Made by a program: the position numbers and the translations under genes. Below the pieces are notes generated by a model. It was not told the DNA's origin and ran no database searches. It saw only the letters and a list, made by a program, of their open reading frames with translations. This document shows positions 1-52,013 of a stretch of 64,000 bases of DNA, one piece after another; position 1 is the first letter of the stretch; each line of letters starts with the position of its first letter. The stretch is from Dehalococcoidia bacterium (GTDB lineage Bacteria > Chloroflexota > Dehalococcoidia > GIF9 > UBA5629). The DNA is taken from NCBI GenBank assembly GCA_041653995.1, contig JBAZEK010000001.1:1184747-1248746 (forward strand). The letters are read 5' to 3'.

Positions 1-3000
1 CTTTCCTTTATCTTGAGGGCGTTCTTGACCGCCATCGAGCAGCAGATGCGGCTGCAGTAGGCCCTTTCCTCGTTGCGCGAGCCGGCGCACTGCACCATCA
101 CCACGTTCTTGCCCGCCCAGGTCGAATCATCCCGGCTCAAACGCTTCTCCAGCTCAAGCTGAGTGATCACCCTGCCGTCCTTCCCGTACAAATATTCCCG
201 GGCCGCGGCCGGCTCGGCGCCGGTGGCCACGATGATGGCGCCGCAGGAGACCTTGATGTCTTTGGCATCCTGGAAAATGGTCGCTTCGAACTGCCCAATA
301 AAGCCGGATACGCCGGTCACGTCGGCGTTCAGATGCATGACGATGTTGGGACTCTCCTCCACCTGCCTGACCAGGCCGGCGACAAATGGTTGAATGTCCT
401 CGTGCTCCAGCGTGTAATTCAAATCGAGCGCGTTGCCGCCCAGCCTGCCGGACTTCTCCACCAGGTGCACTTTGAAGCCCTGACCCGCCAGCGCCAGCGC
501 GGCGGTCATGCCGCTCACGCCGCCGCCCATTACCAGGCCCGTCTGGTCCACGGCAAAGGTGGTGCCGGTCAGCGGCGCCAGCAGCCTGGCCCGCGCCACC
601 GACATCTTCATAAGCTGTATGGCTTTATTTGTGGCCTGCTCCGGCTCGGCGGAGTGCACCCACGAGCACTGGTCCCTGATGTTGGCCAGCTCGAATAGAT
701 ACGGGTTGAGGCCGGCCTCCCTCAGCGTCTCGCGGAAAATGGGCTCGTGCGTGCGCGGCGTGCAGGACGCCACCACCACACGGTTGAGACGGTGCTTGTG
801 TATCATGTCATGTATGTTGTTGAGACTGGAATCGGCGCAGGTGTACATGGTGTGCGTGGCGAAGACCACGCCCGGCAATTGCGCTGCGGCCTGCGCTACC
901 TTCTCAACGTCCACCACCGAGGCGATGTTCTTGCCGCAGTGGCAGACGAACACGCCGATCCTGGGCTGCTCGTCGGTTACATCGTGCTCCTCCGGGTAGA
1001 CCGGTTTGCTGATCAATGAGTTGCGCGCCTCGGCCAGCAGCTCCATCGACAGCGAAGCCGCCGCGCTGGCCTGCGTCACGGTCTCGGGTATGTCCTTTGG
1101 CTCCTGGAAGGCCCCGGCCACGTACACACCGGGACGCGAGGTCTCAAGCGGCGATAGCCGGTCGGTGGAGCAGAACCCGTACTCGTTCAGATCGATGCCC
1201 AGGCGTAAGGCGGCCTCCCCGGCATCTTTGCCGGGCTGCATGCCCACCGAGAGCACGACCAGGTCGAACTCCTGCTCCTGCATTTCGCCATCGTCGGCAT
1301 AATATTGCAAACGCAGGTCGCCCGTGCCCGGAACCTGCAGGACGCGCGAAGGCATGCTCCTGATGTAATTTATATTTCCGCTGCTCCTGGCGCGCTCGTA
1401 ATACTGGTCGAAGTCCTTGCCGTGGGCGCGGATATCCATGTAGAAGATCGCGCACTGCAGCCCGGCCGCGTGGTCGGACGCCACCAGCGCCTGCTTGGTG
1501 GAGACCATGCAGCAGACCGAGGAGCAGTAGCCGCTGCCGCACTTCTCGTCGCGCGAACCCACGCACTGTATCCAGGCGATGCGATGCGCCTCTTTACCGT
1601 CGGAGCGCCGTACGACGCGACCCTCGAAGGGGCCGGAGGCCGACAGCATACGCTCGAACTGCACGCTGGTCAGGACGTTGGCATAGCGGCCGAAGCCGAA
1701 CTCGCCCTTCTTCTCCGCCGGAAACTCCTCGAAGCCCGGCGCCAGTATGACCGAGCCCACCTCCAGTTTGACCTCGCGCTGCCCCATGTAATGGTCTATG
1801 GCGTTCTGCTCGCAGGCGCCCACGCACTCACGGCACTCGGAGCACAATGCGCAGTTTAAACAGCGCTCGCTCTCGGCCAGCGCAGCATCTTCACTCAGTC
1901 CACCCTCGGTCTCATCAAAATTGCCGCTCCGCTGAGCGGCTGGCAAATATTCCGGCACGGCCCGCGCGACCTTCCGCTTCCCGGAGATATCCGGCAGCAG
2001 GTCCTCGGGCAGCGGTCTTACCGTATCCTCGAAACGGCCGCCGCGCAGATCCTGGCTCTTCAAATAGCGGTCGATGGACTCCGCGGCCTTCTTGCCCGCG
2101 CCCACCGCCTGTATGATGGAAGCGGGTCCCGACACACTGTCGCCGCCGGCGAATATACCCGCCGCCGAGGTCTCAAACGTCACGGGATCGATCTTGAAGC
2201 AGCCGCGCTCGATGTCCAGCCCGGCGGCGCCGATGAAGCCTTTGTCCAGCGCCTGCCCGATGGCGATGATGACATGGTCGGCCTGTATCGTCCTCAGCTC
2301 CTTTTCATCGTAGGCCGGGCAGAAGCGCCCCTCGTTATCAAATACGCTGGCGCAGCGTTTCAATTCGATGCCGGTTACTGATCCCTCACCAAGTATGCGG
2401 CGCGGTCCCCAGCCGTTGGTCACCGTGATGCCTTCCGCAAGCGTGTCGGCGACCTCCTCCGGCAGGGCCGGCATCTCGTCCCTCTGCTCCAGCGCTACCA
2501 TCTCCACGCTCTCCGCGCCCAGGCGCAACGCCGTGCGCGCCACATCCACGGCTACGTTGCCGCCGCCTATCACGACCGCCCTGCCGCTAACTTCAGGCGG
2601 ATTACTCACATCGGCCGCCCGCCTGAGAAACTCCACACCGTAATCTATGCCCGCCAGGTTCTCGCCTTCCAGGCCCAGCCTTCGGCTGACCTGCACGCCC
2701 ACGCCCACAAAGACCGCGTCATTGTCCTGCCTGATCTTGCCGAACTCGATTTCTTTGCCGATACGGCAACCGTATTTAAAGGCAACGCCTTTGCGGCGGA
2801 TAAGCTCCACTTCATAATCGAGAATATTCTTGGGCAGGCGGTACCCGGGTATGCCCCAGCGCAGCATGCCGCCCGCGGCGGAAGACGCCTCGTAAACGGT
2901 AACGGCATAACCTCGATCAGCCAGGTCGGCGGCTGCCGTCAATCCGGCCGGTCCGGCCCCGATCACGGCCACCTTCTTCGCGCCCGGCGGGGGCGTCTTC

Positions 3001-3747
3001 TCCTCGGGCAGGGCTATCTGCCCGGACTCCACCAGCTCCATCTCACGGTCGGAGGCGAACTTTTTAAGCAGTCGTATTGCGACCGGCTCGTCCAGGTTGC
3101 CGCGCGTGCAGACGGCCTCGCAGGGATGGTTGCAGGCGCGCCCGCAGATGGCGGAAAGCGGGTTCCGCTCCCGTATCAGGTTGACCGCCTTCACGTACTC
3201 CTTCTTCTTGATCAGCTGTATGTAGCCCTGCACATTGATATTGGCCGGGCAGGCTACCTTGCAGGGCGCGTGTCCGTTTTTCAGTATGCCGAAGATGTTG
3301 GGCGTGGCCTGGGCGTAATGCTTGGCGATGGCCTTGCGCGTGCCCATCTCGCGATCAAAGTGGTTGGGCACGTCGACCGGACAGACATCGGTGCACTGCT
3401 CGCAGGCTGTGCACTTAGACTCGTCGACGTAGCGGGGATAGCGCCTGACCGTGGCGGTGAAGCTGCCCGGCTCGCCCTGCAGGTCGGCCAGCTCAGACAG
3501 GGTCAGTATCTCCACGTTGGGGTTGCGCGCGCATTCCACCAGCTTGGGCGACACTATGCAGGTGGCGCAGTCGCCGGTGGGGAATGTCTTGTCCAGGTGC
3601 GACATCATGCCGCCGATGGCGGCCAACCGCTCCACCAGGTAGACCTTGAAGCCCGACCCGGCCAGGTCCAGCGCCGCCTGTATGCCGGCGATGCCTCCGC
3701 CCTGCACCAGCACCGCGCCCGTCTTTTTCTTTATATCTTCACCCATA
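1..3747 (-). CDS. hdrA: Giant HdrA-like FAD/Fe-S flavoprotein, 3'-partial (runs off the window start). It has two HdrA-type modules and an embedded GltD/NfnB-like NAD(P)H-binding domain.
   Basis: Manual minus-strand translation from ATG 3747: MGEDIKKKTGAVLVQGGGIAGIQAALDLAGSGFKV (HdrA FAD fingerprint). VAVIGAGPAGLTAAADLADRGYAVTVYEA (GltD-like Rossmann domain, verified at 2941-2973). WIQCVGSRDEKCGSGYCSSVCC (HdrA Cys cluster, verified near 1521-1570). A second VMGGGVSGMTAALALAGQGFKV and VMVQCAGSRNEERAYCSRICCS follow. The frame is continuous to position 1. The plus-strand ORFs here are antisense shadows. Confidence 0.8.
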
Positions 3748-3760
3748 TCACAGTTACCTT

Positions 3761-4633
3761 TTACGTTCCTTTTGAGCCCAGGGCCTGAAGCACCGCATCC
3801 GGCGGCGCCATCAACCTGTTCAATCCCAGCTCCCCGGGACCTATACCCAGGCATAACCCCAGTAATTGTGTTATGTAAACTATGGGCAGGCGGCCTTTTC
3901 CCGCACCGCCCTTCATCTCGTTCTGCCTGAGGTCGAGGCTGGCCTGGCACATGGGGCAGGCCACGGCGATGCAGTCGGCGCCTGAGGCCCTGCCCATATC
4001 TATAATAGAGTTCGACAGCCGCACCACCACATCGGTGCGCGTCAGGTTCAGTCCTCCCCCACAGCAGTCCACCTTGCAGGACCAGTCCACTCCTTCTCCA
4101 CCCATGGCCTCCACCAGACGATCGAGCGACGTCGGGTTCTCCGCGTCGTCGAAGCCGGTGATGTCGTGGGGACGCACCAGCAGGCACCCGTAGTAGCTGG
4201 CGACCTTCAGGCCGTTGAGCGAGCGAGCCAGCCTTTTCTTCAGATTCGGAATGCCGACATCCTCCAGCAGCACCTCGATCAAATGCCGTACGGCCACCGA
4301 CCCGTCGTAGGGTCTTCCCACAGCTGCGGCTACCTTGTTACGCATGTCCGGCGAGGACGACACCTCATGGTTGGCGGCTTTCATGCGGCTGTAACAGGCC
4401 GCGCAGGTCACCACCGTATCCAATCCCATCTCCTTCGCCAGCAGCAGGTTGGCGGCGGGCAGTGACGCGGCCAGCACGCGGTCGGTCTGGTGGGCGGCGG
4501 TCGCCCCGCAGCAGGACCAGCCGTCTATCTCGACCAGCTCGATGCCCAGCGCGCGCGCCACGGCCGTGGCCGATTCGTGCATGTCGCGCGCCGTGGAATG
4601 CGAGGAGCATCCCGGATAATATGCGTACTTCAT
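3761..4633 (-). CDS. hdrB: Heterodisulfide reductase subunit B (two CCG domains)
   Basis: N-terminal MKYAYYPGCS is typical of HdrB. Cys-rich CCG motifs (CCGG, CPMC). Located immediately upstream of the HdrA-like gene. Confidence 0.85.
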   Translation of the reverse strand: MKYAYYPGCSSHSTARDMHESATAVARALGIELVEIDGWSCCGATAAHQTDRVLAASLPAANLLLAKEMGLDTVVTCAACYSRMKAANHEVSSSPDMRNKVAAAVGRPYDGSVAVRHLIEVLLEDVGIPNLKKRLARSLNGLKVASYYGCLLVRPHDITGFDDAENPTSLDRLVEAMGGEGVDWSCKVDCCGGGLNLTRTDVVVRLSNSIIDMGRASGADCIAVACPMCQASLDLRQNEMKGGAGKGRLPIVYITQLLGLCLGIGPGELGLNRLMAPPDAVLQALGSKGT

Positions 4634-5139
4634 TTCGTCTTACTCTTTACCCCGGCGGTATTTTCGAAGATGCGCCGCACGGTTTTTTTATCGGCGCCCG
4701 AGGGAGGAAGAATAGCCATCTTGCCCTTTCCCAGCATAGCGGGGAATTTCTCCGCATCGTCCATGATCTTGCCGCTGCCCAGCTTGTATCCCATAATCAT
4801 GGACAGGTCGTAGGAGCGGCCGAAGATCTTCACATTCTGCAGGAACATGCGGTTGAAGAGAGGCATGTCTCCCTTCGGCGCCTTAATGCCTTTTGCGATG
4901 GAAAGGCTGCGCAGGGTGTCGATAACGGCGGGGAAGTTGATCTGCATGGGACAGCGGCCGTAGCAGGTCTCGCAGGACAGGCACATCCATACCAGCCCGC
5001 TTTGCAGCAGCTCGTCGCCGGCCCCCAAATGGAGGCGCCTGATAATCTCGGAGGGCGCCGATCCGGCCGGCCCCGCCACCGGACAGCCTGCAGAACACTT
5101 CCTGCACTGGTAGCAGGTGTCCAGTTTTACGCCGGACAT
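4630..5139 (-). CDS. hdrC: Heterodisulfide reductase subunit C (2x[4Fe-4S] ferredoxin). The ORF extends to 5199, but an internal ATG at 5139 has a better SD (AGGTGG-N5-ATG).
   Basis: CxxCxxCxxxCP motifs (CYQCRKCSAGCP, CLSCETCYGRCP). Located upstream of hdrB, with a 4-nt overlap. Confidence 0.8.
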   Translation of the reverse strand: MSGVKLDTCYQCRKCSAGCPVAGPAGSAPSEIIRRLHLGAGDELLQSGLVWMCLSCETCYGRCPMQINFPAVIDTLRSLSIAKGIKAPKGDMPLFNRMFLQNVKIFGRSYDLSMIMGYKLGSGKIMDDAEKFPAMLGKGKMAILPPSGADKKTVRRIFENTAGVKSKTK

Positions 5140-5221
5140 CTCTTCCACCTGCGGCCTGATTCCGGCTGTTCGTCTCTTTTTGCTTATCACAATCGTCATA
5201 TCAGTACACCATTACCCGTTA

Positions 5222-7879
5222 CTATTCTCCGGTCGACACGGTCAGCAGTTCCGTCTCGGTGAGCGCCGCAGAATCCGACTTCTTGCCCAGTGCGGCGACC
5301 CTGACCGGGGCCACCTTGCGGTAGACCTCCGAGGGTTTGAGCAGCCGGCCGTCCACCGTCAGCAGGTCTTCGACCCTGATGCCGAAAAGCCGCTCGTTCT
5401 CCTGCAGGTACGGCAGGATCAGCTGCCAGTCTTCGTCCGTCATGCGGTAGAACCCGCAGCCGTTCAACTGCTGCCAGACGACCTGCTGGCGCGGATCGCG
5501 GATATAGATGGCGCCGCCCGAGGCCAGCGAAAAGAGGTTGCTTCCGGGATACGGCTCTTTAAGCGCCTGCAGGCGTCCCTCATCGTCGAAGGCCACGCCG
5601 TTGAGTATGACGAAGCCGCCGCCGTTAAATACGTCACCGGCCATGAATGACTCCCCCAGGAAATCGAGGCAGGTGCCGTTGATGACGACCCTGGGCCTGC
5701 CCACCGAATTGATGAGGGGCCTGCCGGCGGCGTTGCCCATGACGTAGACCGATCCACCCTTGGCGCCGTACATGAAAGTCTGGCCCACGTCGCCGTGAAT
5801 GACCAGTACGCCGCTCTTGATGATCTGCCCCACCTGGTCCTGGGCATTGCCGTGCACGTTGATGGTCAGGCCGTCGATACCTGAGGCCAGGTAATCGCCG
5901 GAGCTGCCGTATACGTCGATGGTCGCATCGTCCGAGACGGGTCCCAGCCCGCAGCCGATGAAGCGCTGCCCGCTGCAGTTGTAGCTGATAAAGCGCCGCC
6001 ATCCTATGTTGTAGGCGTCCATTAACAGGCTGGCATCGCTTCCCAGTCCTTCCGCATCGAATCCCCGCGCGTTGATCACCAGGACGGCCTCGCCGTTGCG
6101 GGGTGGCCGCAGCAGGCCGTGCGTATTATGGTCGATCAGGCGATACCCGCCGTTCCCGTCCTTATCACCATCAAGCCCGGGAAGGCCGTCGAAGACCTGA
6201 CGCAGCGCACCGCGCACCAGATGGATGACATGGTTGCGCTTTTTGGCGCCGGCAGGATACCTGCGGTCGTTGAGCAGCGTGAGCACTTCAATGGTCGGCG
6301 CGGTGTACCTGCGGTCGGCGGCAATCTCGACAATTGCAGACAGCGCGGAACGCGTGTCGTCGAATGACCACTGCCCCATGCCGCCGGACAGGTGTGCGAA
6401 AACGGCCGCAGCGTCACCCTTCTCAAATAGCTGCGTCAGCCTGTCCCTGACATGGCCGTTGGATGACCTGACTGAAGCGGAGAAATCGCAGGATTCCGTT
6501 GCCGACGGCAGGGGCACAGGTGCGCCGAACTTGTCCGTGCAGGAGATGCGCAGGCGTCCGCCGCTGTCCGGCTTGAGGTCGAAAATGAAGGCGCCGCCGT
6601 CCGTATGGCTGCCGCCCCTGGCGTTCCAGTAGCGGTCGGCAACCGGGCAGATGCGGCTGTCATCCGCATGCAGGCTCTGCAGCGTGGCGTCGATGGCCTG
6701 CTTCTCGGAGGCTATCAAACCCACCTGCACATCGCCGTCGCAGAAGGCGAAGACCTGCGGCCGCAGCATGGCGGTGTCCGTGATGCCCATCAACTGAAAG
6801 GCCCGGCTCTCCGGCAGCGAGCGCGCGATGATGAAGAACCAGGGCCCGTCGGGCGAGCCGTGGATATGTGCGGTCTGGATGGCGCGGTATATAGATTGCC
6901 TGTCCTGCGGAAGCCGATCGAAATCAAGCTCGGAGGTGGGCGCCAGAGCCTCGATAATATATTCCAGCGGGTATCCGTAGGTCCGCTGCAGCAGGTCGAA
7001 CATCAAGATGGAAGCCTCGGTATCGGTGAGGAACTGCGGATGTATATGCCGCTCGGCCAGGTATTCGCACACCGAATGGTAGTTGGCGAAGTCGCCGTTA
7101 TGCACCAGGGCGGCATTGATACCGCCGAAGGGATGGGCGCCGCCGGGATGCCAGACACGGCCCTTGGTGGGGAAGCGCTGGTGCGCTATCCACACGTGGG
7201 CGCGCAGCTCCTCGATCTTATAGTACTTCACGATGGCCTCGGCATAGCCGACCACCTTGAGTATCATGATGTTCCTGCCCTCGGACATAACAAAAGCCTT
7301 CTGCTCGCCCAGCGACGCGTAATATTCCTGGTTGAGCCGCACGCTGTTCTGGTTGATAAACTCCGCCTCCGCCGCTTCCCGCGGCAGGCTATTAAGTTTG
7401 TTCTTCTCAATGAAGGCATCCAGCGCGTCCGCCCTGGCGCGCACAAAATAGCGGTAGACGTCGGGAGGCCTGGCCTCTAAGCCCTCGACCGCCGTCCAGT
7501 CGTCCACGGTATCAAGCCTCTGCCTCGCCCTGACCTCAAAATAAGGCGTGATGTATTTGCCTTCAAGCTCATTCAGTATCCCCGCATCGAGGAAGGCCAC
7601 GTGCAGCATATAGCAATCTTCCAGCACCTCGCGGCTGACCCCGAGTTGCTCGGGCACAAAGCCGAGCGCGGCGATGCCGCCGCCCTTGCCGTTGCCGCGG
7701 TTGTGCATCTGTCTGGACGGCTCGTAGATATGCCTGGCCGCCGCCGGATGCGAGCAGCAGAAGCCTACTACGCCGCAGCCACCCTCCTCCTCGATCTTCC
7801 TGTCGGGCGTGGCAGGTTGCAGCTCGCGCGCCAGCCCGGCGCGTGAGTCCAGCAGACGCTCGATCAACTCTCGTTTCAT
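5222..7879 (-). CDS. Glutamate synthase-like protein: a class-II glutamine amidotransferase domain fused to a GltS C-terminal GXGXG (beta-helix) domain
   Basis: Ntn-type GGCGVVGF catalytic Cys region lies about 35 aa from the annotated Met. C-terminal GXGXG-repeat region (GSSGDYLASG...GNAQDQVG...GDVGQTF...GNAAGRP) matches GltB domain 3. Confidence 0.75.
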   Translation of the reverse strand: MKRELIERLLDSRAGLARELQPATPDRKIEEEGGCGVVGFCCSHPAAARHIYEPSRQMHNRGNGKGGGIAALGFVPEQLGVSREVLEDCYMLHVAFLDAGILNELEGKYITPYFEVRARQRLDTVDDWTAVEGLEARPPDVYRYFVRARADALDAFIEKNKLNSLPREAAEAEFINQNSVRLNQEYYASLGEQKAFVMSEGRNIMILKVVGYAEAIVKYYKIEELRAHVWIAHQRFPTKGRVWHPGGAHPFGGINAALVHNGDFANYHSVCEYLAERHIHPQFLTDTEASILMFDLLQRTYGYPLEYIIEALAPTSELDFDRLPQDRQSIYRAIQTAHIHGSPDGPWFFIIARSLPESRAFQLMGITDTAMLRPQVFAFCDGDVQVGLIASEKQAIDATLQSLHADDSRICPVADRYWNARGGSHTDGGAFIFDLKPDSGGRLRISCTDKFGAPVPLPSATESCDFSASVRSSNGHVRDRLTQLFEKGDAAAVFAHLSGGMGQWSFDDTRSALSAIVEIAADRRYTAPTIEVLTLLNDRRYPAGAKKRNHVIHLVRGALRQVFDGLPGLDGDKDGNGGYRLIDHNTHGLLRPPRNGEAVLVINARGFDAEGLGSDASLLMDAYNIGWRRFISYNCSGQRFIGCGLGPVSDDATIDVYGSSGDYLASGIDGLTINVHGNAQDQVGQIIKSGVLVIHGDVGQTFMYGAKGGSVYVMGNAAGRPLINSVGRPRVVINGTCLDFLGESFMAGDVFNGGGFVILNGVAFDDEGRLQALKEPYPGSNLFSLASGGAIYIRDPRQQVVWQQLNGCGFYRMTDEDWQLILPYLQENERLFGIRVEDLLTVDGRLLKPSEVYRKVAPVRVAALGKKSDSAALTETELLTVSTGE

Positions 7880-9429
7880 CCGGTTTGCCCCGCATCGTTA
7901 CTGTAGTCGAGGTGCTCGAGCAGATCGGTGCGGCCCCTCAGCTCGCTGACGCTGCGCAGGCCCAGCCTGCGCAGTATGTCGACCAGCTCGATACGCCAGG
8001 CGTTGTAGAGGTTGATCACACGCTGCGAGCCCCATTCCACGTTGAACTGGCCCTGCAGGCCCGGGTCCGTGGTGGCTATGCCGCGCGGACAACCGCGCCC
8101 GCTCTCGCAGCGCGCGCAGCGGACGCAGCCCAGCGCGACCAGCTCCCCCGTCCCTACTACCACACCATCCGCGCCCAGGGCGATGGCCTTGGCGATATCG
8201 TGCGCGTTGCGCAAACCGCCGCTGGCCATCAGAGTTATTTTGTCACGCACGCCCTCACGTGTGAGGAAATCGTGGACCTTGACGATGGCATATTCGATAG
8301 GCATGGCGATATTCTTCTTGGCGATGTCGGGGGCGGCGCCGGTGCCCCCGTATCCGCCGTCCATATGAACGATATGCGCCCCGGCCGAATAGCTCCCCAC
8401 CGCAACCATGTCCACATCGGCGGGGGTGGACACCTTGGCCGAGACCAGCGCATGGCGATTGATATGTTTGATCCAGTCCATGTGTTTCTTATGGTCTTCG
8501 ATGGAATATACGCTGTGGAACGGAAAAGGCGAGAAGAGCGAGATGCCCGTCACCGTTTCGCGCATTTTTGCCACGGCGGGGGTGACCTTATCGGCCAGCA
8601 GGTGGCCGCCCAGACCCGGCTTGGCGCCCTGGGCATATTTGAACTCAACGATGCGCACGCGTTGAATCGTCTCCTCGCGCACGCCGAACAGCCCGGTGGC
8701 GACCTGTGTAATGGTGTGCTCGTCATAGGGCCTCAGCCTCTCCATGTAGCCGCCCTCGCCCGTGCAGGTGAAGGTATTGAAGGCCACGGCGGCCTGCGCC
8801 TTGGAAAGCTGTGTCACGTTGCTGACCGACCCGAAGGACATGCCGCCGCCGTACCAGGGAACATCGATCTTGATCTGCGGCCTCCCGTCTCCCCGCCTGT
8901 TCAGCTCAAGGCTGGTGTCGATCTGGTCCGGCGCTAGGTCGATCGGCGGCACGGCGGGGAATTTGAAGCGCAGGCGGTCGAACCCGCCGCCCGAGTCGCC
9001 GCACTCGTATTGATATCCGTACCCGGGAGCGGGAGGCGCGCCGGTCTCCGCCATCTTCCAGGTGGCAAGTATCAGGTCGGAGGTCCAGCGATGATCGCCC
9101 AGCACCTTCATCATGGGATTTTCCACCATCTTCAACGCGCCGTTGGGGCAGAGGTCCACGCAGTAATGTCCGGTGTCCTTGCACGAGGGCCCGATGCATA
9201 CGTTGTGTCGCGGGTTGGCGAAATACTTGTAGCCGCCCTTGAGCACGTGAACGCCCTGAGGGCACGCCTCGGCGCATTTGCCGCACAGTTTGCAGGCATC
9301 GCTGCGGCGAATAATATATTTGGCGATCTCGTTGCGATAACGCGGCGGCGCCGGCTTGATTACGCGCCGGACCTCGACCTGTGGCACCAGCGTCTCGATA
9401 GTGCTTTGCGGCAGGTCCTGTTCAGCCAT
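7876..9429 (-). CDS. Glutamate synthase FMN-binding (domain 2) protein with N-terminal ferredoxin-like Cys motifs
   Basis: GltS FMN-domain motifs: GGMSFGSVS, KYAQGAKPGLGGHL, ISLFSPFPFHSVYSIED, DGGYGGTGAAP, SGGLRNAHDIAKAIALGADGV, CVRCARCESGRGCP. The start was set to the in-frame ATG at 9429 (MAEQDL), which overlaps the upstream gene's stop. Confidence 0.8.
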   Translation of the reverse strand: MAEQDLPQSTIETLVPQVEVRRVIKPAPPRYRNEIAKYIIRRSDACKLCGKCAEACPQGVHVLKGGYKYFANPRHNVCIGPSCKDTGHYCVDLCPNGALKMVENPMMKVLGDHRWTSDLILATWKMAETGAPPAPGYGYQYECGDSGGGFDRLRFKFPAVPPIDLAPDQIDTSLELNRRGDGRPQIKIDVPWYGGGMSFGSVSNVTQLSKAQAAVAFNTFTCTGEGGYMERLRPYDEHTITQVATGLFGVREETIQRVRIVEFKYAQGAKPGLGGHLLADKVTPAVAKMRETVTGISLFSPFPFHSVYSIEDHKKHMDWIKHINRHALVSAKVSTPADVDMVAVGSYSAGAHIVHMDGGYGGTGAAPDIAKKNIAMPIEYAIVKVHDFLTREGVRDKITLMASGGLRNAHDIAKAIALGADGVVVGTGELVALGCVRCARCESGRGCPRGIATTDPGLQGQFNVEWGSQRVINLYNAWRIELVDILRRLGLRSVSELRGRTDLLEHLDYSNDAGQTG

Positions 9430-10831
9430 TTCTTCTTGTACCAAAGAGTTTGCCAAAGGTTGCCTCCTCGAGTTCCTCAAAGAAAAGCGCCCTGCCCGCC
9501 TCGCCGCGCAGGCGGCGCACATCGCGTATACCCATTGCGCCCATGACCTCTATCAACTGGTCGTGCCATGCGGCGATCAGGTTGGTCATGCGGCCCACGC
9601 CGTAATCCGTATCAATCTCCCTGATGCCGGCCCGGCAGGCCAGGCCGTCGTTGCACTGCCTGCACAGGGTGCACTCCAGGGCTATTAACAAAGGCAGGTT
9701 AACGGAAACCAGGTCCGCGCCGCAGATGATCTGCTTGGCCATGTGCTCGGCCAGCGCGACGCCCCCGCCGGATATCAGCGTGACCTCGTTCCTGATGCCG
9801 CGCTGAACCAGCGACGTATGTATTTGCCGAAACATGTCCTTTATGAACCGCGGGCTGCCGGCGTTAAGCTCGTTGCCGTTGACGTCGGCCACCAGGTGCA
9901 GGGCCTCGATATACGGTTCCCCCGCCAGCTCAATGCTGCGCTCCACGCCTTGCGCATCCAGGTCGATCCTGACCGCCACCACGATAGCGGGATTAACGGC
10001 CTTGAGCTCCGCAATGCGCTGTTCCAGGCCGGCGCCGTCCCCGATCTCCACCAATCTCATTTTCCGCAGCAGTGCGGCAGCAGGCAGAGCCGATGAGGGG
10101 CCGATGTAGGCGGCCAGGCCGGGCAGATACTGCTCCAGGTCGTTGCCCAGCAGGTCCCAGTCGTTGAAATCGACGATGGCGATGGTCCCCGTCTGAGCCG
10201 CAACCACTTTGAAGATGGGCGGCAGATTGGGCAGCCGGTAGCCCTGCGGCATCATATCGATGACCATGGGGATGGGTATGTCCACCAGCGGCGGCAGACG
10301 TCCTTCAAGCGTATTGGTCCCAAATTGCAGCAGGGAGGGTTTCCTGCCGATATCCACGGCCGTGCTGATATACTCGCGGCCGTGTATGCCGTCGCGTGTG
10401 GGACGGACTATCTCCGACATATCGGTCCACATCGAATCGAATCCGGGCCCTGAGAAGGGGCCGCGGTACCCGGCGCCCGAGACAGGGATCCTGGCGGTCT
10501 CCGCCTGCGTCCAGGTCGTCTCTATCATCTGGGGCGTCCAGTAGCCGTTGCCCAATCGCTCATAAACGGGATTCAGCGCGAGCGAAAGCAGGCCCTTGGT
10601 GCACTGCTGCACGCAGGAGAAGCAGCCCATGCACTGGAAAAAGAGGGCGTCCATCTCGCGCAAATCGCGTATATAAGCAGCTTCCTCGCGGTAGCGATCG
10701 AACACGCAGGCACGCTTGACGCAGTTGTGGCAACCGGCGCAGTCCTCGCGCCAGTCGACCACGCCGCACCTGCCTATGCGCGGCCGCCGCGGCGGCACCG
10801 GTCTGGTTTTGATGTGATACTTGTCAGGCAT
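9422..10831 (-). CDS. Divergent paralog of the glutamate synthase FMN-domain protein (N-terminal ferredoxin domain; several FMN motifs are degenerate)
   Basis: N-terminal Cys clusters (CAGCHNCVKRAC, CMGCFSCVQQC). C-terminal ISGGGVALAEHMAKQIICGADLVSV...CTLCRQCNDGLACRAG parallels the downstream gene. The GAKPG/GGTGAAP motifs are not conserved. Confidence 0.6.
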   Translation of the reverse strand: MPDKYHIKTRPVPPRRPRIGRCGVVDWREDCAGCHNCVKRACVFDRYREEAAYIRDLREMDALFFQCMGCFSCVQQCTKGLLSLALNPVYERLGNGYWTPQMIETTWTQAETARIPVSGAGYRGPFSGPGFDSMWTDMSEIVRPTRDGIHGREYISTAVDIGRKPSLLQFGTNTLEGRLPPLVDIPIPMVIDMMPQGYRLPNLPPIFKVVAAQTGTIAIVDFNDWDLLGNDLEQYLPGLAAYIGPSSALPAAALLRKMRLVEIGDGAGLEQRIAELKAVNPAIVVAVRIDLDAQGVERSIELAGEPYIEALHLVADVNGNELNAGSPRFIKDMFRQIHTSLVQRGIRNEVTLISGGGVALAEHMAKQIICGADLVSVNLPLLIALECTLCRQCNDGLACRAGIREIDTDYGVGRMTNLIAAWHDQLIEVMGAMGIRDVRRLRGEAGRALFFEELEEATFGKLFGTRRNG

Positions 10832-10846
10832 ATCTTCTTTCCCCGC

Positions 10847-11749
10847 TTAAAGGGCCATGGATATCAGCGCGGGCACGGCCGATTCGTTGCCCCCGGAAAA
10901 GATGTGTATACCGCGCAGCCCCGGCAGGGCCTTGAGCCTGCCGATCATCTCGGCGCAGATGGCCAGCCCCTCTTTTCGCTGGGCTTCTTCGCCGCCGGCC
11001 GACTCCAGGCGTGTGATCACATCATCCGGAATATTGAAATCCGTGAATGTATCCTTCATCCTCTTCGCTTCAGCCGCGCTGCCGAGCGGCAGTACGCCGG
11101 CCAGGATGGCGGTCTTTTGAGCAATTGCTTCGCCTCTGAGGGTATCGAGCCACAGTTTGAAGTCTTCGATATCGAAGACGGCCTGTGTCTGCAAGAACCC
11201 GGCCCCCGCCCTGATCTTCTTTTTGATGCGCATAACATTGAGTTCGAGCGGCCTGAGCGCCGGATTGGCGGCGGCGCCCGCCAGCATGGAGAAGGGACCT
11301 TCGATCTTGCGCCCGTCCATCAGCAACCCCTCTTCAGCCATAGCATTTACCGCGGCGATGAGCTGGATCGAATCGATGTCGAAGACGCCCGCCGAATCGG
11401 GGCACGCGATGAGGGTCTGATGGTACCCGCTGAGACAGAGAACGTTCTTGATGCCCAGTGAAACTGCGCCGAGCAGGTCGGATTGCAGGGCGATGCGGTT
11501 CCTGTCCCTGGTCACGACCTGATAAACAGGTTCGATACCGGCACGGAGCAGGGTGATGGACGCGGCAAGGCTGGACATGGCCACGCCGTAATGGTTGTCG
11601 GCGACGTTTACGGCAACGGGGCCGTCCCTCAAAGCGGCGGCGCACTCTTCCACAACGCGTGTGCCCGCCCCGGGACGGGGCAGATACTCCGCCGTCAGTA
11701 TGAAATCCGTACCCGCGATTTTCGCGGCCAGTCTGCTGTCAGGTTTCAT
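10847..11749 (-). CDS. metF: 5,10-methylenetetrahydrofolate reductase
   Basis: MTHFR-family sequence over its whole length (FILTAEYLPRPGAG..., QTQAVFDIEDFKLWLD...). About 300 aa. Confidence 0.8.
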   Translation of the reverse strand: MKPDSRLAAKIAGTDFILTAEYLPRPGAGTRVVEECAAALRDGPVAVNVADNHYGVAMSSLAASITLLRAGIEPVYQVVTRDRNRIALQSDLLGAVSLGIKNVLCLSGYHQTLIACPDSAGVFDIDSIQLIAAVNAMAEEGLLMDGRKIEGPFSMLAGAAANPALRPLELNVMRIKKKIRAGAGFLQTQAVFDIEDFKLWLDTLRGEAIAQKTAILAGVLPLGSAAEAKRMKDTFTDFNIPDDVITRLESAGGEEAQRKEGLAICAEMIGRLKALPGLRGIHIFSGGNESAVPALISMAL

Positions 11750-11759
11750 GAGATTACTT

Positions 11760-12200
11760 CTACTCCTTATCGAGCTCCAGCTCGTCGCCCGCGTATGCGC
11801 TGCGCGGCGATGTTTCGATCCTGTTACGGAAGGCTTCCAGCTCTTTTCTGACCTGCTCCACGCCGCCTTCGCCCGGCTGGATCATGACCATGCGCCCGCG
11901 GCCCAGGCCTATCTCCTCCAGCAGGGCATCCACCGCCTCCACCCGTTTTTGAGCGCGCAGGTTCCCCTCGATATAACGGCAATCACCTTTATTACATGTG
12001 ACCACGGCCACTCCGTCCGCGCCGGTCTCGAAGGACTTGGTCAGGTAGAGGATATCGACCTTACCGGAACACGGCAACGGGATCAGCCTGACCTCAATCC
12101 CCTGCATGCTATCTCCTCCCGACAGCTCGGACGGATCCAGGCTGCTTGAGCAGCAGAAGAGATCGATCTTGACCCTGGCCTTATTTGCTACGTACATTTC
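11760..12200 (-). CDS. mvhD: MvhD/FlpD-like (methyl-viologen-reducing hydrogenase delta subunit family) Fe-S protein. The start was chosen at an internal ATG with an AGGTGG SD.
   Basis: MvhD pattern: KIDLFCCSSS...PCSGKVD...GADGVAVVTCNKGDCRY. Compare MvhD CNWCSY...MCSGRVD...GADGVLVSGCHPGDCHY. Confidence 0.75.
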   Translation of the reverse strand, partial: EMYVANKARVKIDLFCCSSSLDPSELSGGDSMQGIEVRLIPLPCSGKVDILYLTKSFETGADGVAVVTCNKGDCRYIEGNLRAQKRVEAVDALLEEIGLGRGRMVMIQPGEGGVEQVRKELEAFRNRIETSPRSAYAGDELELDKE

Positions 12201-12307
12201 ATGCCACCTATACGGCTTATGGAAGCCTGTTGCCGTATTATAGCAGCACAATATGGGGCTGTCAAAATCTTTTGTCACAAATTTGCCGCAAGGCAAGCTG
12301 AAAATGG

Positions 12308-12332
12308 AAACGGCCCGGTTAAGGGCCGTTTC
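12308..12332 (-). terminator. GC-rich hairpin (AAACGGCCC-GGTTAA-GGGCCGTTT) downstream of the RRM gene, followed on the minus strand by CCAUUUUCAG
   Basis: Perfect 9-bp inverted repeat read directly from the sequence. It lies between the rbp stop (12363) and the mvhD start. Confidence 0.5.
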
Positions 12333-12362
12333 ATAATAGTCTATGGTTTTAGATATCTTTGA

Positions 12363-12719
12363 TTAATACCTTCTCGAGCCGCCTCTGCCGCCGCCGTAGC
12401 CTCCGCGCTGGCCGAAGGAGGACTTGCCTCCACGACCACCGCCGCCGCCGCTGCGTCCGCCGCCACCGCCGCCCTCTCCTCTCGGTCGGGCGCCGTTGAC
12501 GGTGATGGCACGTTCCTTTAGCTTCTTGCCGTTCAGTCCGGCGATGGCCGCCTGGCCTTCCTGCAATTTGGGCATCTCCACAAATCCGAAGCCTTTGGAT
12601 TGCCCGCTGTAGTTGTCCTTGATAATGGCAACAGACGAGACCTCGCCGAAGGCTTCGAACTCAGTCCTGATGTCGCTCTCGGTTACCTCGTAAGCCAGGT
12701 TCCCCACGTATATATTCAT
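12363..12719 (-). CDS. Glycine-rich RNA-binding protein (single RRM domain with a Gly/Arg-rich tail)
   Basis: RNP-1/RNP-2 motifs (IYVGNL, KGFGFVEM) followed by a GGGGGGRSGGGGGRGG tail. Confidence 0.85.
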   Translation of the reverse strand: MNIYVGNLAYEVTESDIRTEFEAFGEVSSVAIIKDNYSGQSKGFGFVEMPKLQEGQAAIAGLNGKKLKERAITVNGARPRGEGGGGGGRSGGGGGRGGKSSFGQRGGYGGGRGGSRRY

Positions 12720-12794
12720 GGTACGATTATTTCCTCCTTAATTTAAAAGGCGCGGGGATAGAATCTCTCCTTGCGCCCGCAGTGCCTGCCGCGA

Positions 12795-13091
12795 TTACCT
12801 TCTGGGATTTATGGTGCTATAGCAATCGCTGCAGTAAACCGGTTTGTCCTGTCGCGGCTCGAAGGGGACCTCGGTCTCTTTGCCGCACTGTGCGCACTGC
12901 GCGGGGTACATCTTGCGCTGGTAGCCTGACCTGCCGCCGTCGCGGCTTGATTTCCTGGCCTGCCTGCAATCGGGGCAGCGTTTGGGCTCATTGGCGAACC
13001 CCTTGGATGCGTAGAACTCCTGCTCCGTCGCGGTGAAGGTGAAATCCTTGCTGCAATCCGCGCAGTTGATAGTTTTGTCGGTGAAACCCAT
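12795..13091 (-). CDS. Small zinc-ribbon protein (two CxxC pairs, then a second CxxC...CxxC)
   Basis: CADC...CPDC and CAQCG...CSDC. A complete ORF with a strong AGGAGG SD. Located upstream of the RRM gene. Confidence 0.55.
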   Translation of the reverse strand: MGFTDKTINCADCSKDFTFTATEQEFYASKGFANEPKRCPDCRQARKSSRDGGRSGYQRKMYPAQCAQCGKETEVPFEPRQDKPVYCSDCYSTINPRR

Positions 13092-13321
13092 GTGATGACC
13101 TCCTGATTTAATTTTAATGGCTTTTGGTTGCGGTCATCCAACATGAGAAGATATTAGAGGAAGATCGAGAGTTAATCTACCGAAGCTGGCAATAACCTTT
13201 ACAGAAACCACTATGTATACTTTACAATAAAATACTACATAATGCAATTGGTCGATAATACGCTGTCACTATTTAACACCGGGCTTCCGCATCTGTTATA
13301 CTTCTCTTTCCCAAATTTAAT

Positions 13322-14473
13322 ATGAATGATCTGAGTTTCTTCAGACGTTACACCGCACCCTGTCTGGTCGCTTTCCTGGGGTCGACTTTCCTGTGGGCCA
13401 TCCTGACCTATATCACGATCTACTGGGTGGACATGGGCTACAGCCACCTGCAGGTGGGGATACTGATTGCCGTTTTCCCGCTGGTGTCCCTGGCCCTGAT
13501 GATACCTTTCGGTGTTTTCGTCGACCGCATCTCGCCAAAAAAGCTGATCCTGGCCAGCCAGTTTATCTTCGCCCTTAGCATCTCGGGGCTGATGATGACG
13601 CAGGATTTCTGGCTGACCATGCTGTTGCTGGCGGTGGGCGGCGCAGGCAACGCGCTTTTCAATAACGCACTTCCCGCGCTCTTCTACAAGACCCTGGGCA
13701 GCAGCATACGCGGCCTCAAGCTGGGTTTTTTTACGGCAGGCATACTGGTAGGGTACGGGCTGGGCTCCCTGCTGGGTGGTTACATATACACGGACTTCGA
13801 TATGAACGCCATCTTCCTGTTCGCACTGATCGGTACGGTCCCCATGTTGCTGCTGAGCCTGCTGCTGGCGGACGTCCCCGGCACCAGAATCAAGCTCAGC
13901 GATTACCGGGCCGACCTTTCCAGTAAGTCGGTGCTTGTCTTCGTCATACTTGTTTTCGCATTCTCCCTGCACGCCGGGGCAGAGCAGTCCAGCTTCAGCC
14001 TCTTCCTCAACAAGGACATCGGGATGGACAAGGAAGCGGTGGGCTGGCTGTACTTCATCCATGCCAACGTTATGGCCGTGCTTTCGATCGTCAGCGGGTA
14101 CTATGCCGATCGCGTCAACTCGCGGGGAAAGGGGCTGGCCGCACTTTATTACGCCGGTATAGCCCTGTCGGGCCTGACCAATATACTGCTGATGTTCACC
14201 ACTAACTTCGGCAATGTCCTGGCCACGCGCCTGACCCATGCCGTGGGCGACAGCCTGACGCTGGTGACCCGCAGCCTGATAGTATCCAACCTCTTCATCA
14301 CCACTCGCATGGGCGGCAACCTGGCCACCGTCCAGACCACCGTGACGCTGGGTACCCTCTGCGGCGCCATCATCAGCGGGGCATTCACGGGATATGCGAC
14401 TGGATTCGCCATCGCCGGCGCCGCGGCCGTCCTGGCGGTGATTTATGCGTTAATCGTCAAGCCTGAATTCTGA
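13322..14473 (+). CDS. MFS transporter
   Basis: 12-TM-like hydrophobic profile, with an MFS-type loop motif after TM2 (GVFVDRISPKK). Confidence 0.7.
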   Translation: MNDLSFFRRYTAPCLVAFLGSTFLWAILTYITIYWVDMGYSHLQVGILIAVFPLVSLALMIPFGVFVDRISPKKLILASQFIFALSISGLMMTQDFWLTMLLLAVGGAGNALFNNALPALFYKTLGSSIRGLKLGFFTAGILVGYGLGSLLGGYIYTDFDMNAIFLFALIGTVPMLLLSLLLADVPGTRIKLSDYRADLSSKSVLVFVILVFAFSLHAGAEQSSFSLFLNKDIGMDKEAVGWLYFIHANVMAVLSIVSGYYADRVNSRGKGLAALYYAGIALSGLTNILLMFTTNFGNVLATRLTHAVGDSLTLVTRSLIVSNLFITTRMGGNLATVQTTVTLGTLCGAIISGAFTGYATGFAIAGAAAVLAVIYALIVKPEF

Positions 14474-22464: not shown

Positions 22465-22494
22465 CCCTGTTTACCGGGTTGAGGGGCCAATCAT

Positions 22495-23520
22495 ATGGGT
22501 AACAGACATCATTACATCACGTGGCTGACAGTACTTATTGTCCTCTTCACATCAGGCACGATCGGCTACATGCTCATCGAGGGCTGGAACTTCTTCGATT
22601 CCTTGTACATGACGGTCCTCACCATCGCCACGCTGGGCGGTGAGGTGCACCCGCTCTCCACTGCCGGCCGCGTTTATACCATCGTTCTAACGCTGTTCGG
22701 AGTAGGTACTGTAATCTATATCCTTACCAGCATTGTGCAGGCAACACTGGAAACTGAGTTCGGATCGTTCAGGAGGTCCCGCATGGAAGCCAGAATCAGG
22801 AAACTTGCAAACCACTTCGTGCTGTGCGGCTACGGCCGCGTCGGCGAGGCTATAGCCGGCACGTTAAAACAACAGAAATCCAACTTTGTGGTTATCGACC
22901 ACAGCATCAACAGCTACAACCGGGCCGTCCAGGACGGCTGCCTGGCCATTATGGACGACGCCACAAAACACGATGTCCTCAAGCAAGCCGGCATTGAAAA
23001 GGCCAGGGGCCTGATCACCGCCTTCGGCGACGATGCCTATAATACCTATGCGGTGCTGACCGCACGCGAGATCAACCCCATGCTCACCATCATCGGACGA
23101 GCCAATAACAACGATGCCGTTCGCAGGCTCAAACAGGCCGGCGCCACCCATATCATCCTGCCCGAAGTGATAGGCGGCCAGCAGATGGCCCGCCTGGCCT
23201 TGAGGCCAACCACTGTGCAGTTCATCGAGACAGTCCTGGCCGACCACGAGGGCGAATATCTGGTGGAAGAAGTAACCATCAACGAGAACTCAACTCTCAT
23301 CGACAAAACCATTAAGGACATCGGGGAGAGGTTCGCAGGTGTACGTATCATGGCCATCAGGGAAAAGGACGGCGATATAATCATTAATCCCAGCCTGAAC
23401 ACCACCGTCGAGATAGGGGGTAGCCTGACTGCTTTCGGCACCATGCAACAACTGCAGGAGATCGAAGGCTGTTGTTCAATTACACGCGACAGTAAGGGTC
23501 AGATAGTGCCCGACCTGTAA
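22495..23520 (+). CDS. Two-TM cation channel with a cytoplasmic RCK (TrkA-N/TrkA-C) domain. The selectivity filter is non-canonical.
   Basis: TM1, pore helix, filter TIATLGGEV and TM2, then a Rossmann RCK domain (HFVLCGYGRVGEAIAG) and a TrkA-C-like C-terminus. Confidence 0.75.
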   Translation: MGNRHHYITWLTVLIVLFTSGTIGYMLIEGWNFFDSLYMTVLTIATLGGEVHPLSTAGRVYTIVLTLFGVGTVIYILTSIVQATLETEFGSFRRSRMEARIRKLANHFVLCGYGRVGEAIAGTLKQQKSNFVVIDHSINSYNRAVQDGCLAIMDDATKHDVLKQAGIEKARGLITAFGDDAYNTYAVLTAREINPMLTIIGRANNNDAVRRLKQAGATHIILPEVIGGQQMARLALRPTTVQFIETVLADHEGEYLVEEVTINENSTLIDKTIKDIGERFAGVRIMAIREKDGDIIINPSLNTTVEIGGSLTAFGTMQQLQEIEGCCSITRDSKGQIVPDL

Positions 23521-28142: not shown

Positions 28143-28410
28143 GGGCCGTGCACCGGCCTTCGATAGTGTCCTTCAGCTTGCTTCCGCCAGCCGGCTCCGG
28201 CCAGGTGACCCTGCGTCACCCGGAGTTCACTATTTACCGCTGCTTCCTTCCGGACCTGACGGGATTCATAGCCCTCCGCCGCGCAAGACCCAACCTTCAA
28301 CACCGCTTAACAGTTGTAGTTCTGAAAAACAAAACCTCGAGCCGGGATTCAGCCCCGCTATAGCGGATCTCGGGTACAGGGCACCGCTGGTTCCCCGCCT
28401 AGCACGGCCC
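28143..28410 (-). ncRNA. ffs: Signal recognition particle RNA, large (Bacillus-type, about 268 nt) form
   Basis: Minus-strand sequence contains GUCAGGUCCGGAAGGAAGCAGC, the SRP RNA domain IV consensus (identical to the E. coli 4.5S core). The 5' GGGCCGUGC and 3' GCACGGCCC termini pair as a closing helix. Lies in a 330-nt intergenic gap. Confidence 0.8.
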
Positions 28411-51968: not shown

Positions 51969-52013
51969 TAAGATCTCCTCCATTATTTATGTTTATTATT
52001 TATAAGTGTGCTG

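Follow-up and report, generated by a model that had tools for sequence, protein, structure and literature searches.

Gene content and organization of the operon

The stretch of DNA analyzed here, referred to as the window, comprises 64,000 nucleotides (nt) from a Dehalococcoidia bacterium (GIF9; UBA5629), positions 1,184,747 to 1,248,746 on the forward strand of contig JBAZEK010000001.1 in assembly GCA_041653995.1. Its first part carries an operon in which genes of the heterodisulfide reductase (Hdr) type and a gene resembling methylene-tetrahydrofolate reductase (MTHFR; tetrahydrofolate, THF) are combined with three genes derived from the large subunit of glutamate synthase (GOGAT; GltS), the chief enzyme of nitrogen assimilation. 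Eight uninterrupted open reading frames (ORFs) form a minus-strand run within 1-12296, as read from the ORF listing and the Pfam and NCBIfam matches. They are arranged in the order mvhD, metF-like, GltS', GltS-FMN (flavin mononucleotide), GATase+GXGXG (glutamine amidotransferase), hdrC, hdrB, and HdrA with an inserted GltD/NfnB-like domain, which is the content, strand and order given in the first-pass annotation of this DNA.

The first gene, mvhD1 (11760..12196, 145 amino acids, aa), encodes an MvhD/FlpD-type [2Fe-2S] electron-transfer subunit (Pfam FlpD, 90 bits; NCBIfam VhuD, 73 bits). It is followed by a metF-like flavoprotein gene (10847..11749, 300 aa) whose Pfam MTHFR match of 92 bits extends over the full length. 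GltS' (9422..10831, 469 aa) displays a partial Glu_synthase match together with Fer4, and the catalytic FMN subunit GltS (7876..9429, 517 aa from Met32; 548 aa from an alternative ATG at 9522) combines Glu_synthase with an N-terminal 2x[4Fe-4S] ferredoxin domain. The GATase+GXGXG fusion (5222..7879, 885 aa) consists of the GATase domain at ~35-455, a helical linker and the GXGXG beta-helix (Pfam GATase_6, weak, and GXGXG). The product of hdrC (4630..5199, 189 aa, 2x[4Fe-4S]) matches Fer4 families of Pfam and TIGR03290 (64 bits), and that of hdrB (3761..4633, 290 aa) has two Pfam CCG domains with complete Cys motifs and matches TIGR03288 (197 bits). The HdrA-like protein (HdrA-L, 1..3746; Pfam, NCBIfam) is cut by the window edge, and 1248 of its ~1490 aa are encoded in the window.

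The genes are separated by gaps of 10, 15, 22 and 14 nt. Overlaps of 4 nt join GltS to GATase+GXGXG and hdrC to hdrB, and GltS' overlaps GltS by 8 nt if the latter starts at Met32; the packing is thus as tight as had been described. A sigma-70 promoter, TTGACA-17 nt-TATAAT with an extended -10 TG (12237..12265, minus strand), agrees with the consensus at 12 of 12 positions. This match is unique within 1-13400, lies ~40 nt upstream of mvhD and is kept in L005 and L049 (L-numbers denote related loci). A terminator scan found no excess of terminator-like sites inside the operon over shuffled sequence. Because the genes abut and one perfect promoter precedes them, the single operon proposed in the first-pass annotation is well supported at the sequence level. 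The promoter falls within a longer mvhD ORF that opens at 12296, and the start of mvhD was therefore moved from there to ATG 12196, the predicted true start.

In relatives, a second mvhD and metV (PF12225) come after HdrA (e.g. L003, L004), so the full unit is predicted to have ten genes. None of the ten module proteins reached the cut-off of a curated NCBIfam family, and neither the complex nor any close homologue has a solved structure, the PDB matches being limited to GltB, FwdC and classical MetF. HdrA-L is composed of an HdrA N-terminal part, a GltD/NfnB-like insert (~154-665) with FAD/NAD(P)H and 2x[4Fe-4S] sites, an HdrA core and, before the cut, the beginning of a second one. The insert is recognized by Fer4_20 and Pyr_redox_2 and by PRK12814, 'NADPH-dependent glutamate synthase small subunit' (expect value, E, 4e-117), which bears out the GltD-like NAD(P)H domain noticed earlier, and it is the sole GltD-like NAD(P)H module of the system. 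HdrA is 1479-1500 aa long in relatives, and the full-length copy of L005 possesses the core duplication (647-907 versus 1160-1406). Due to this rearrangement the NCBIfam HdrA2 score is 776 bits, below the equivalog cut-off of 1100. An HdrA flavoprotein core with Fe-S domains, HdrBC and MvhD are all present, as in HdrA-type bifurcating complexes.

Glutamate synthase domains and active-site residues

A Dehalococcoidia metagenome-assembled genome (MAG) encodes a protein with 100% identity to the 885-aa GATase+GXGXG protein. In family alignments of 11 and 83 sequences, Cys35 (GGCGVVGF), H233-x-R235-F-P-T238-x-G240, H260-N261-G262 and T285-D286-T287-E288 are invariant. Residues C35, R235, T238, N261-G262 and D286 align with Cys1, Arg73, Thr76, the Asn98-Gly99 oxyanion hole and Asp123 of what we take to be the sequence and residue roles of GlmS. 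The NCBIfam glmS and purF models also match the GATase stretch (E ~1e-7). An AlphaFold2 model of residues 30-470, built from 83 sequences, has a predicted local distance difference test score (pLDDT) of 79 and a predicted template modelling score (pTM) of 0.85; it replaced a full-length model (11 sequences, pLDDT 55, below 50 in the GATase part), which was not used. The top seven Foldseek matches of the domain model in the PDB are GltS large subunits (E 1.5e-12 to 2.9e-8, template modelling (TM) scores 0.54-0.60, ~460 columns), and GlmS, GFAT and PurF rank below them with TM 0.3-0.4. As modelled, the GATase fold appears specifically GltB-like. The GXGXG domain scores 52 bits in Pfam against a cut-off of 32.5, with PDB matches to FwdC and the beta-helix of 1LLW. 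A leader of 34 residues stands ahead of Cys35.

GltS scores 304 bits against Pfam Glu_synthase (cut-off 20) and matches GltB in the PDB with E 1e-53. In the alignment with the ferredoxin-dependent GltS (Fd-GltS) of Synechocystis (1LLW), its Q298, K301 and R321 correspond to Gln969, Lys972 and Arg992 of the 2-oxoglutarate/2-iminoglutarate site, and Gln978 is replaced by His. All three [3Fe-4S] Cys residues of GltB are conserved, and a fourth Cys gives the motif CxxCxxCx5CP, which may bind a [4Fe-4S] cluster. The Pfam match of GltS' covers just the C-terminal third of the glutamate synthase FMN domain, together with ferredoxin-like Cys motifs. According to the family alignment, GltS' is devoid of GEGG, of the entire KYAQGAKPG...R substrate loop and of the GGYGGTGAAP flavin-phosphate motif; what it retains are the Cys motifs at the N terminus and CxxCxxCx5CP at the C terminus, and further segments particular to it are strongly conserved. 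We read GltS' as an inactive ("dead") paralogue of the GltS FMN subunit that is under selection. No significant match to the central domain of GltB, PF04898 (Glu_syn_central), was found at the corresponding position in GATase+GXGXG, GltS or GltS', the single match (E 1.2e-4; 22.0 bits versus a gathering cut-off of 22.8) being located inside the GltS FMN barrel. GltS' probably takes the place of this central domain in a structural and electron-wire role. With glutamine- and 2-oxoglutarate-binding residues and Fe-S Cys residues conserved, and with a GltB-like GATase model, the GltS parts look functional as a glutamate synthase.

An exhaustive search of 1.84 billion representative proteins yielded 275 clusters at E<=1e-30. 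These include bacterial proteins of giant size (2200-3150 aa; P0270, P0280, P0308, P0343 and P0362, one of them from Ca. Brocadiia), in which a GlcD-like FAD-dependent 2-hydroxyacid dehydrogenase and Fe-S domains are followed by GltS', GltS and GAT/GXGXG in operon order. Because the trio is fused into one polypeptide behind a dehydrogenase, these proteins indicate that GltS', GltS and GAT/GXGXG are one enzyme of which the dead paralogue is a part, and that this type of GltS serves as an electron sink for a dehydrogenase partner. The giant fusions themselves may be glutamate synthases driven by a 2-hydroxyacid, e.g. D-2-hydroxyglutarate.

The module shares several features with GltBD (Azospirillum brasilense, 1EA0/2VDC/6S6S; Bacillus, 7MFM) and with Fd-GltS (Synechocystis, 1LLW/1OFD): a GltB-type N-terminal nucleophile (Ntn) amidotransferase, the equivalents of Gln969, Lys972 and Arg992, the cluster Cys triad, the GXGXG beta-helix, and a GltD-like FAD/NAD(P)H plus 2x[4Fe-4S] module within the system. 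However, it distributes the enzyme over three genes, joins domains 1 and 3 in one protein, includes a dead FMN paralogue, has no recognizable central domain, and possesses a fourth cluster Cys and extra 2x[4Fe-4S] domains. Moreover, its GltD-like part lies inside HdrA and not in a separate beta subunit. Split ('archaeal-type') GOGAT genes and the F420-dependent GltS of archaea and anaerobes are mentioned in PMC9012536. The split enzymes resemble the module in having GltB domains as separate genes, an FMN subunit with an N-terminal ferredoxin-like domain, and a donor presumed not to be a pyridine nucleotide. They stand alone or beside FrhB, whereas the module joins GATase and GXGXG in one protein, has the dead paralogue as an obligatory member and keeps its GOGAT genes linked to MvhD/MetFV(/Hdr). 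The earlier label of an archaeal-type split GOGAT is roughly right as far as separate genes are concerned; it does not hold for domains 1 and 3, which are fused, nor for the FMN-domain gene that is a dead paralogue. A more ordinary ferredoxin-domain GltS-FMN gene, 26-28% identical, is present a few kb from the module in four loci (L016, 21298-22527; L019, ~21164-22591; L027, ~21233-22567; L009, 3805-5424).

N-methylglutamate synthase (MgsABC) of methylotrophs is likewise made of three GltB-derived pieces (GATase-like, GXGXG and FMN). It has a one-carbon (C1)/folate link, is not known to carry out net redox chemistry or to have Fe-S partners, and is encoded beside gmaS/mgd. This identity was rejected for the module, since GltS and GltS' carry Fe-S domains, MvhD and Hdr partners are present, and no gmaS/mgd is found among the neighbours; abundant Fe-S domains and Amt, GlnA and P-II neighbours distinguish the module from MgsABC.

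The reading that we prefer, with a confidence somewhat short of an even chance, is that the operon encodes a glutamate synthase fed by the Hdr/MvhD/MetFV module, probably bifurcating the electrons of NAD(P)H to GOGAT and ferredoxin.

Distribution, gene order and genomic neighbours

One genome per species was scanned with the 885-aa family alignment, and the module proteins were mapped by tblastn on the best 80 loci. At least 582 species genomes carry a relative of this marker protein, and the family has thousands of metagenomic proteins, from bacteria of peat, sediment, aquifer and digester. Among the 47 loci with enough DNA on both sides, MvhD is present in all 47, MetF, GltS' and MetV in 46 each, GltS in 43, and HdrC, HdrB and HdrA-L in 40. 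The four loci without a GltS match are of rotated gene order and end too early; Hdr is absent from seven loci. The hosts belong to Dehalococcoidia, Planctomycetota, Verrucomicrobiota, Bacteroidota, Ignavibacteriae, Leptospirales, Latescibacterota, Poribacteria, Armatimonadota and Thermodesulfobacteriota (Smithella, Syntrophorhabdus, Desulfosudis, Desulfonema, Desulforapulum), ~10 phyla in all.

Loci with and without hdrCBA near the MvhD-MetFV-GltS core are called Hdr-linked and Hdr-less, respectively. In Desulfobacterales the same gene set is circularly permuted, GAT/GXGXG-hdrCBA-mvhD2-metV-mvhD1-metF-GltS'-GltS. A second clade, with 57-60% identity, has the order mvhD-(metV-metF)-GltS'-GltS-GAT/GXGXG and no Hdr genes nearby. 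Since this Hdr-less clade keeps MvhD, MetFV and the GltS trio together, these genes appear to be the constant core and Hdr a facultative addition, and the first-pass description of GltS genes inserted between hdrC and metF is misleading. The synteny check strongly supports a real functional unit. GltS-like genes stand beside MvhD/MetF(V) in essentially every locus examined, in ~10 phyla and including the rotated orders, and they are not stand-alone GOGAT genes at unrelated places, the placement that the first-pass annotation had named as one that would speak against it. The flanking genes are otherwise poorly conserved, from which the block seems to move as a unit.

This conservation bears on a simpler view, in which a ferredoxin-dependent split GOGAT and an Hdr-MetFV reductase are two independent enzymes merely co-transcribed, coupled neither physically nor electronically. 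Free ferredoxin could indeed serve split GOGATs that have ferredoxin-like domains, and operons often mix functions. However, the adjacency survives both the rotation of gene order and the separation from Hdr in ~10 phyla, each module has two MvhD copies, the only GltD-like NAD(P)H entry is embedded in HdrA, and the ten genes move as a block between unconserved flanks. We consider such independence quite improbable.

The operon also differs from the rest of the window in guanine-plus-cytosine (GC) content, 0.62 against ~0.54. Recent horizontal transfer was rejected as the cause of this step, because a GC content above that of the flanks is found for the module in 59 of 65 loci, with a mean difference of 3.6 points; the step is a family trait.

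A total of ~500 flanking ORFs from 81 loci were clustered, and all clusters found in at least four loci and most of the three-locus ones were annotated. The recurrent neighbours are the ammonium transporter Amt (9 loci), P-II (8), glutamine synthetase GlnA (7, plus one type III enzyme, GSIII), glutamine-dependent NAD synthase (6), glutamate dehydrogenase (GDH; 5), a GAF/sigma-54 activator (5), a class-I amidotransferase (5) and the nitrogen repressor NrpR (4, two of them in Dehalococcoidia). At least one core nitrogen gene is nearby in 18 of the 81 loci, and a member of a wider set in 26, in both clades and several phyla. Folate, corrinoid and carbon monoxide dehydrogenase/acetyl-CoA synthase (CODH/ACS) genes are absent from the annotated recurrent clusters. 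Because the recurrent neighbours are nitrogen genes and no C1 gene occurs among these clusters, the neighbourhood points to nitrogen assimilation and not to the Wood-Ljungdahl pathway. The first-pass annotation had offered, as one of two possibilities, a bifurcating glutamate synthase coupled to Hdr. The coupling of GOGAT to Hdr gains support because the GATase and FMN catalytic residues are conserved and nitrogen-assimilation neighbours recur; the bifurcating part is one that we infer.

Downstream of the module in a single Chloroflexi genome (L004, 21950-22649) lies a gene of the URO-D family, an MtaA/MtbA-like methyltransferase or a uroporphyrinogen decarboxylase, which is not recurrent.

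The same evidence can be set against a known enzyme of similar composition. The '6S type' HdrABC-MvhD-MetFV methylene-THF reductase of Moorella thermoacetica (Mock et al. 2014, summarized in PMC8515935, PMC5736913 and PMC6085437) is proposed to perform flavin-based bifurcation with a partner reaction yet to be identified. It resembles the module in that an HdrA with two fused cores, an HdrB with two CCG domains, HdrC, MvhD, MetF and MetV are encoded together; five of the genes hdrA, hdrB, hdrC, mvhD, metF and metV are in the window, and metV, found in 46 of the 47 fully flanked loci, would lie beyond it here. The module differs by the ~500-aa GltD/NfnB-like insert of its HdrA, two MvhD genes, three integral GltS-derived genes, a MetF with Tyr, Phe or His at the Asp120 position, and nitrogen neighbours in place of acs/Wood-Ljungdahl genes. 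None of the five MTHFR classes in PMC8515935 matches its arrangement.

The operon might accordingly encode a Moorella-type reductase, catabolic or anabolic, with the GltS-derived proteins serving as additional subunits for electron transfer or structure, or as a second acceptor site for something other than 2-oxoglutarate, and with no glutamate being made. All six subunits of the 6S type are present, the second acceptor of the Moorella enzyme has not been identified (PMC8515935, PMC5736913), the Wood-Ljungdahl pathway is common in Dehalococcoidia and Desulfobacterales (PMC5736913, PMC2702500), and one GltS gene is already a dead paralogue. However, no variation across phyla is seen in the nucleophile or in the glutamine-binding and 2-oxoglutarate-binding residues, which a pure scaffold would not be expected to preserve, the neighbours are nitrogen rather than C1 genes, and MetF of the Hdr-linked clade is without the Asp120 equivalent. 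The module is also present in MAGs of Verrucomicrobiota, Bacteroidota and Planctomycetota, where we do not expect Wood-Ljungdahl catabolism. We give this explanation little probability.

In the window, the operon is flanked by genes for an RNA recognition motif (RRM) protein and a zinc-ribbon protein and by housekeeping genes. An inverted repeat, TTGCC-N4-GGCAA (12283..12296, minus strand), directly upstream of the -35 element is conserved in the three closest loci (window, L005, L049) and is a candidate operator. Next to it, a terminator-like hairpin, AAACGGCCC/GGGCCGTTT, with a short T run (12301..12331, minus strand) is predicted to end the upstream RRM gene and to part it from the operon. 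The hairpin is conserved in L005 and L049 and was found by reading, its T run being too short for the rule of the terminator scan. Directly upstream of the operon follow the glycine-rich RRM RNA-binding protein gene (12363-12719, minus strand) and a small CxxC zinc-ribbon ORF (~12797-13092, minus strand), and the RRM gene likewise directly precedes the module in L005, L041 and L049, the nearest of the Dehalococcoidia loci. An Rfam scan of the window revealed no riboswitch near the operon; the sole match is a bacterial large signal recognition particle (SRP) RNA at 28146-28407 on the minus strand (190 bits). Elsewhere, seven tandem paralogous AMP-binding (acyl-CoA synthetase-like) genes of 547-575 aa occupy 50280-62484 on the minus strand, with 48-81% pairwise identity (Pfam on two of them); a local expansion of this size is unusual. 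A CoA-disulfide-reductase-like fusion of a pyridine-nucleotide-disulfide oxidoreductase with a rhodanese domain (46230-47948, plus strand) adjoins a GatZ/KbaZ-PfkB fusion (47992-50253).

MetF and the supply of electrons

The MetF-like subunits of the module were aligned with E. coli MetF. The equivalent of Glu28 is kept in 59 of 59 sequences. At the position of Asp120, 45 of 46 Hdr-linked MetF proteins have another residue (Tyr in 34, including the window, Phe in 6, His in 4 and Arg in 1). The 13 Hdr-less loci all have Asp there, as does a single deep-branching Hdr-linked locus. Asp120 matters for folate binding and catalysis in E. coli MetF. We read this pattern, which is not proof, as a folate reaction changed or lost once the NAD(P)H-binding HdrA joined the complex. 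Since a key residue of folate catalysis is lost, the Hdr-linked MetF-like subunit is probably mainly an electron-transfer or scaffold flavoprotein. The other possibility of the first-pass annotation, a shared module serving both MTHFR and GOGAT, is weakened by the same loss.

The distribution of Asp120 is central to another explanation, a methyl-THF-coupled glutamate synthase. Here MetF would oxidize 5-methyl-THF (E0' ~-200 mV), and MetV, MvhD and GltS' would relay the electrons to the FMN of GltS, which would make GOGAT the high-potential acceptor for an oxidation that is otherwise hard to drive; where Hdr is present, HdrA could split the electrons of methyl-THF between GOGAT and NAD(P)+. The core common to both clades is MvhD, MetF, MetV, GltS', GltS and GAT/GXGXG, with Hdr missing in 7 of 47 loci, and in the Hdr-less MetF neither the Glu28 nor the Asp120 equivalent has been lost. 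Moreover, the same GltS unit is fused to GlcD-like 2-hydroxyacid dehydrogenases, whose donors have similar potential, and Hdr-less loci encode no other substrate-level donor. However, the MetF of the window, like nearly all of the Hdr-linked ones, is without the Asp120 equivalent, and no methyltransferase, corrinoid or Wood-Ljungdahl genes are among the annotated recurrent neighbour clusters. The flux of nitrogen assimilation is also far smaller than a catabolic methyl flux, so that the stoichiometry fits anabolic amounts or a recycling loop of GDH and glutamine synthetase (GS) only, and ferredoxin could feed the 2x[4Fe-4S] domains directly. We find this coupling distinctly unlikely.

In the preferred reading of a glutamate synthase fed by the Hdr module, the operon product would be one multi-subunit iron-sulfur flavoenzyme that makes glutamate (glutamine + 2-oxoglutarate + 2 e- -> 2 glutamate). 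Its GOGAT unit would be formed by the GATase+GXGXG fusion, the GltS FMN subunit and the inactive GltS', and electrons would be supplied by the Hdr-type module instead of a GltD subunit or free ferredoxin. NAD(P)H would be oxidized at the GltD/NfnB-like domain in HdrA, and the HdrA flavin would split the electron pair. The high-potential electrons would pass to MvhD, then to the MetV/MetF-like flavoprotein, and by way of the Fe-S domains in GltS'/GltS would reach the FMN of GltS; the low-potential electrons would reduce ferredoxin (Fd). With glutamine (Gln), glutamate (Glu) and 2-oxoglutarate (2-OG), the overall reaction would be 2 NAD(P)H + Fd(ox) + Gln + 2-OG -> 2 NAD(P)+ + Fd(red) + 2 Glu, exergonic by an estimated 25-30 kJ/mol, roughly. 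The module encodes every part that such a route requires: an NAD(P)H entry domain of GltD type, an HdrA with a double core, two copies of MvhD as connectors, the Fe-S-rich GltS'/GltS pair and the GOGAT active sites. We infer the association of all products in one complex, the direction of electron flow, the bifurcation to ferredoxin and any role of HdrBC.

A GltD/NfnB-like domain is the normal NAD(P)H entry module of GOGAT. From the free energies of the GDH (~-38 kJ/mol) and glutaminase (~-14 kJ/mol) reactions we estimate E0' of the (Gln+2-OG)/2 Glu couple at ~-50 mV, and the corresponding values are -140 mV for heterodisulfide and -200 mV for methylene-THF. The GOGAT couple would therefore exert at least as strong a pull as either of these acceptors. 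In the Hdr-less form, possible donors would be methyl-THF via MetF, or ferredoxin via the 2x[4Fe-4S] domains. By analogy, the GlcD fusions make a logic of 'dehydrogenase -> GOGAT' plausible, the donors having potentials around -200 mV.

HdrA proteins with a GltD/NfnB insert have been described as HdrL of Desulfobacterium autotrophicum (PMC2702500), HdrA9-11 of the anaerobic methanotrophic archaea ANME-1 (PMC9012536) and 'type III HdrA' (PMC12054007). As in the module, HdrA is fused to a GltD-like NAD(P)H-binding part and followed by mvhD. However, those proteins are linked to dsr, fdh or unknown partners, and no GltS large-subunit genes or MetF are reported adjacent to them.

Several observations weigh against a GOGAT fed through HdrA. 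The Hdr-less clade suggests that GOGAT, MetFV and MvhD can work without HdrA, so bifurcation by HdrA cannot be a full account of the system. The reading assigns no function to HdrBC, and the intact CCG motifs of HdrB suggest a substrate of its own. MetF and MetV are kept at nearly every locus, and with the Glu28 equivalent retained a real folate reaction is possible. The residue mapping of MetF relies on what we take to be the E. coli sequence; note that the contrast between G-D and G-Y/F/H within the family is independent of this mapping. Nitrogen genes are near just 18-26 of the 81 loci. Sigma-54 (NtrC-type) promoters are not enriched upstream of the modules (2 matches versus 0.68 expected), and the NrpR operator GGAA-N6-TTCC has 2 matches in the window versus 0.9 expected, none near the promoter. 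Finally, GltB enzymes remove an N-terminal leader such as that of the GATase+GXGXG protein, and the freeing of Cys35 that the reading requires is assumed by this analogy.

In the literature searched as full text, with subscription-only papers outside the search, GltS large-subunit genes in an Hdr-MetFV cluster are not described. The module is real and widespread, an apparently undescribed enzyme system assembled from known parts. A bolder claim, which is tentative and on balance unlikely, is that it represents a new class of flavin-based bifurcating enzyme, a 10-subunit 'Hdr-GOGAT' in which the strongly exergonic reduction in nitrogen assimilation would drive the formation of reduced ferredoxin with NAD(P)H as donor, and whose Hdr-less form would pull the thermodynamically difficult oxidation of methyl-THF or a 2-hydroxyacid. 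Under this bolder claim, the MetFV-Hdr scaffold of acetogens would have a second, nitrogen-linked role, and part of the ATP spent on the GS-GOGAT route would be regained by energy-starved anaerobes of at least ten phyla. The genes are now annotated piecemeal as 'glutamate synthase', 'ferredoxin' and 'heterodisulfide reductase', and because of this the metabolic reconstructions of carriers probably misassign both MTHFR and GOGAT. The system bears on the donor of the split GOGATs of anaerobes, on the partner reaction of MetFV-Hdr and on the role of HdrA-GltD fusions ('HdrL', type III HdrA). To our knowledge, the textbook glutamate synthases all dissipate ~50 kJ/mol when NAD(P)H or ferredoxin reduces 2-iminoglutarate. 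If GOGAT is coupled to a bifurcating HdrA, this would be the first instance in which nitrogen assimilation serves energy conservation.

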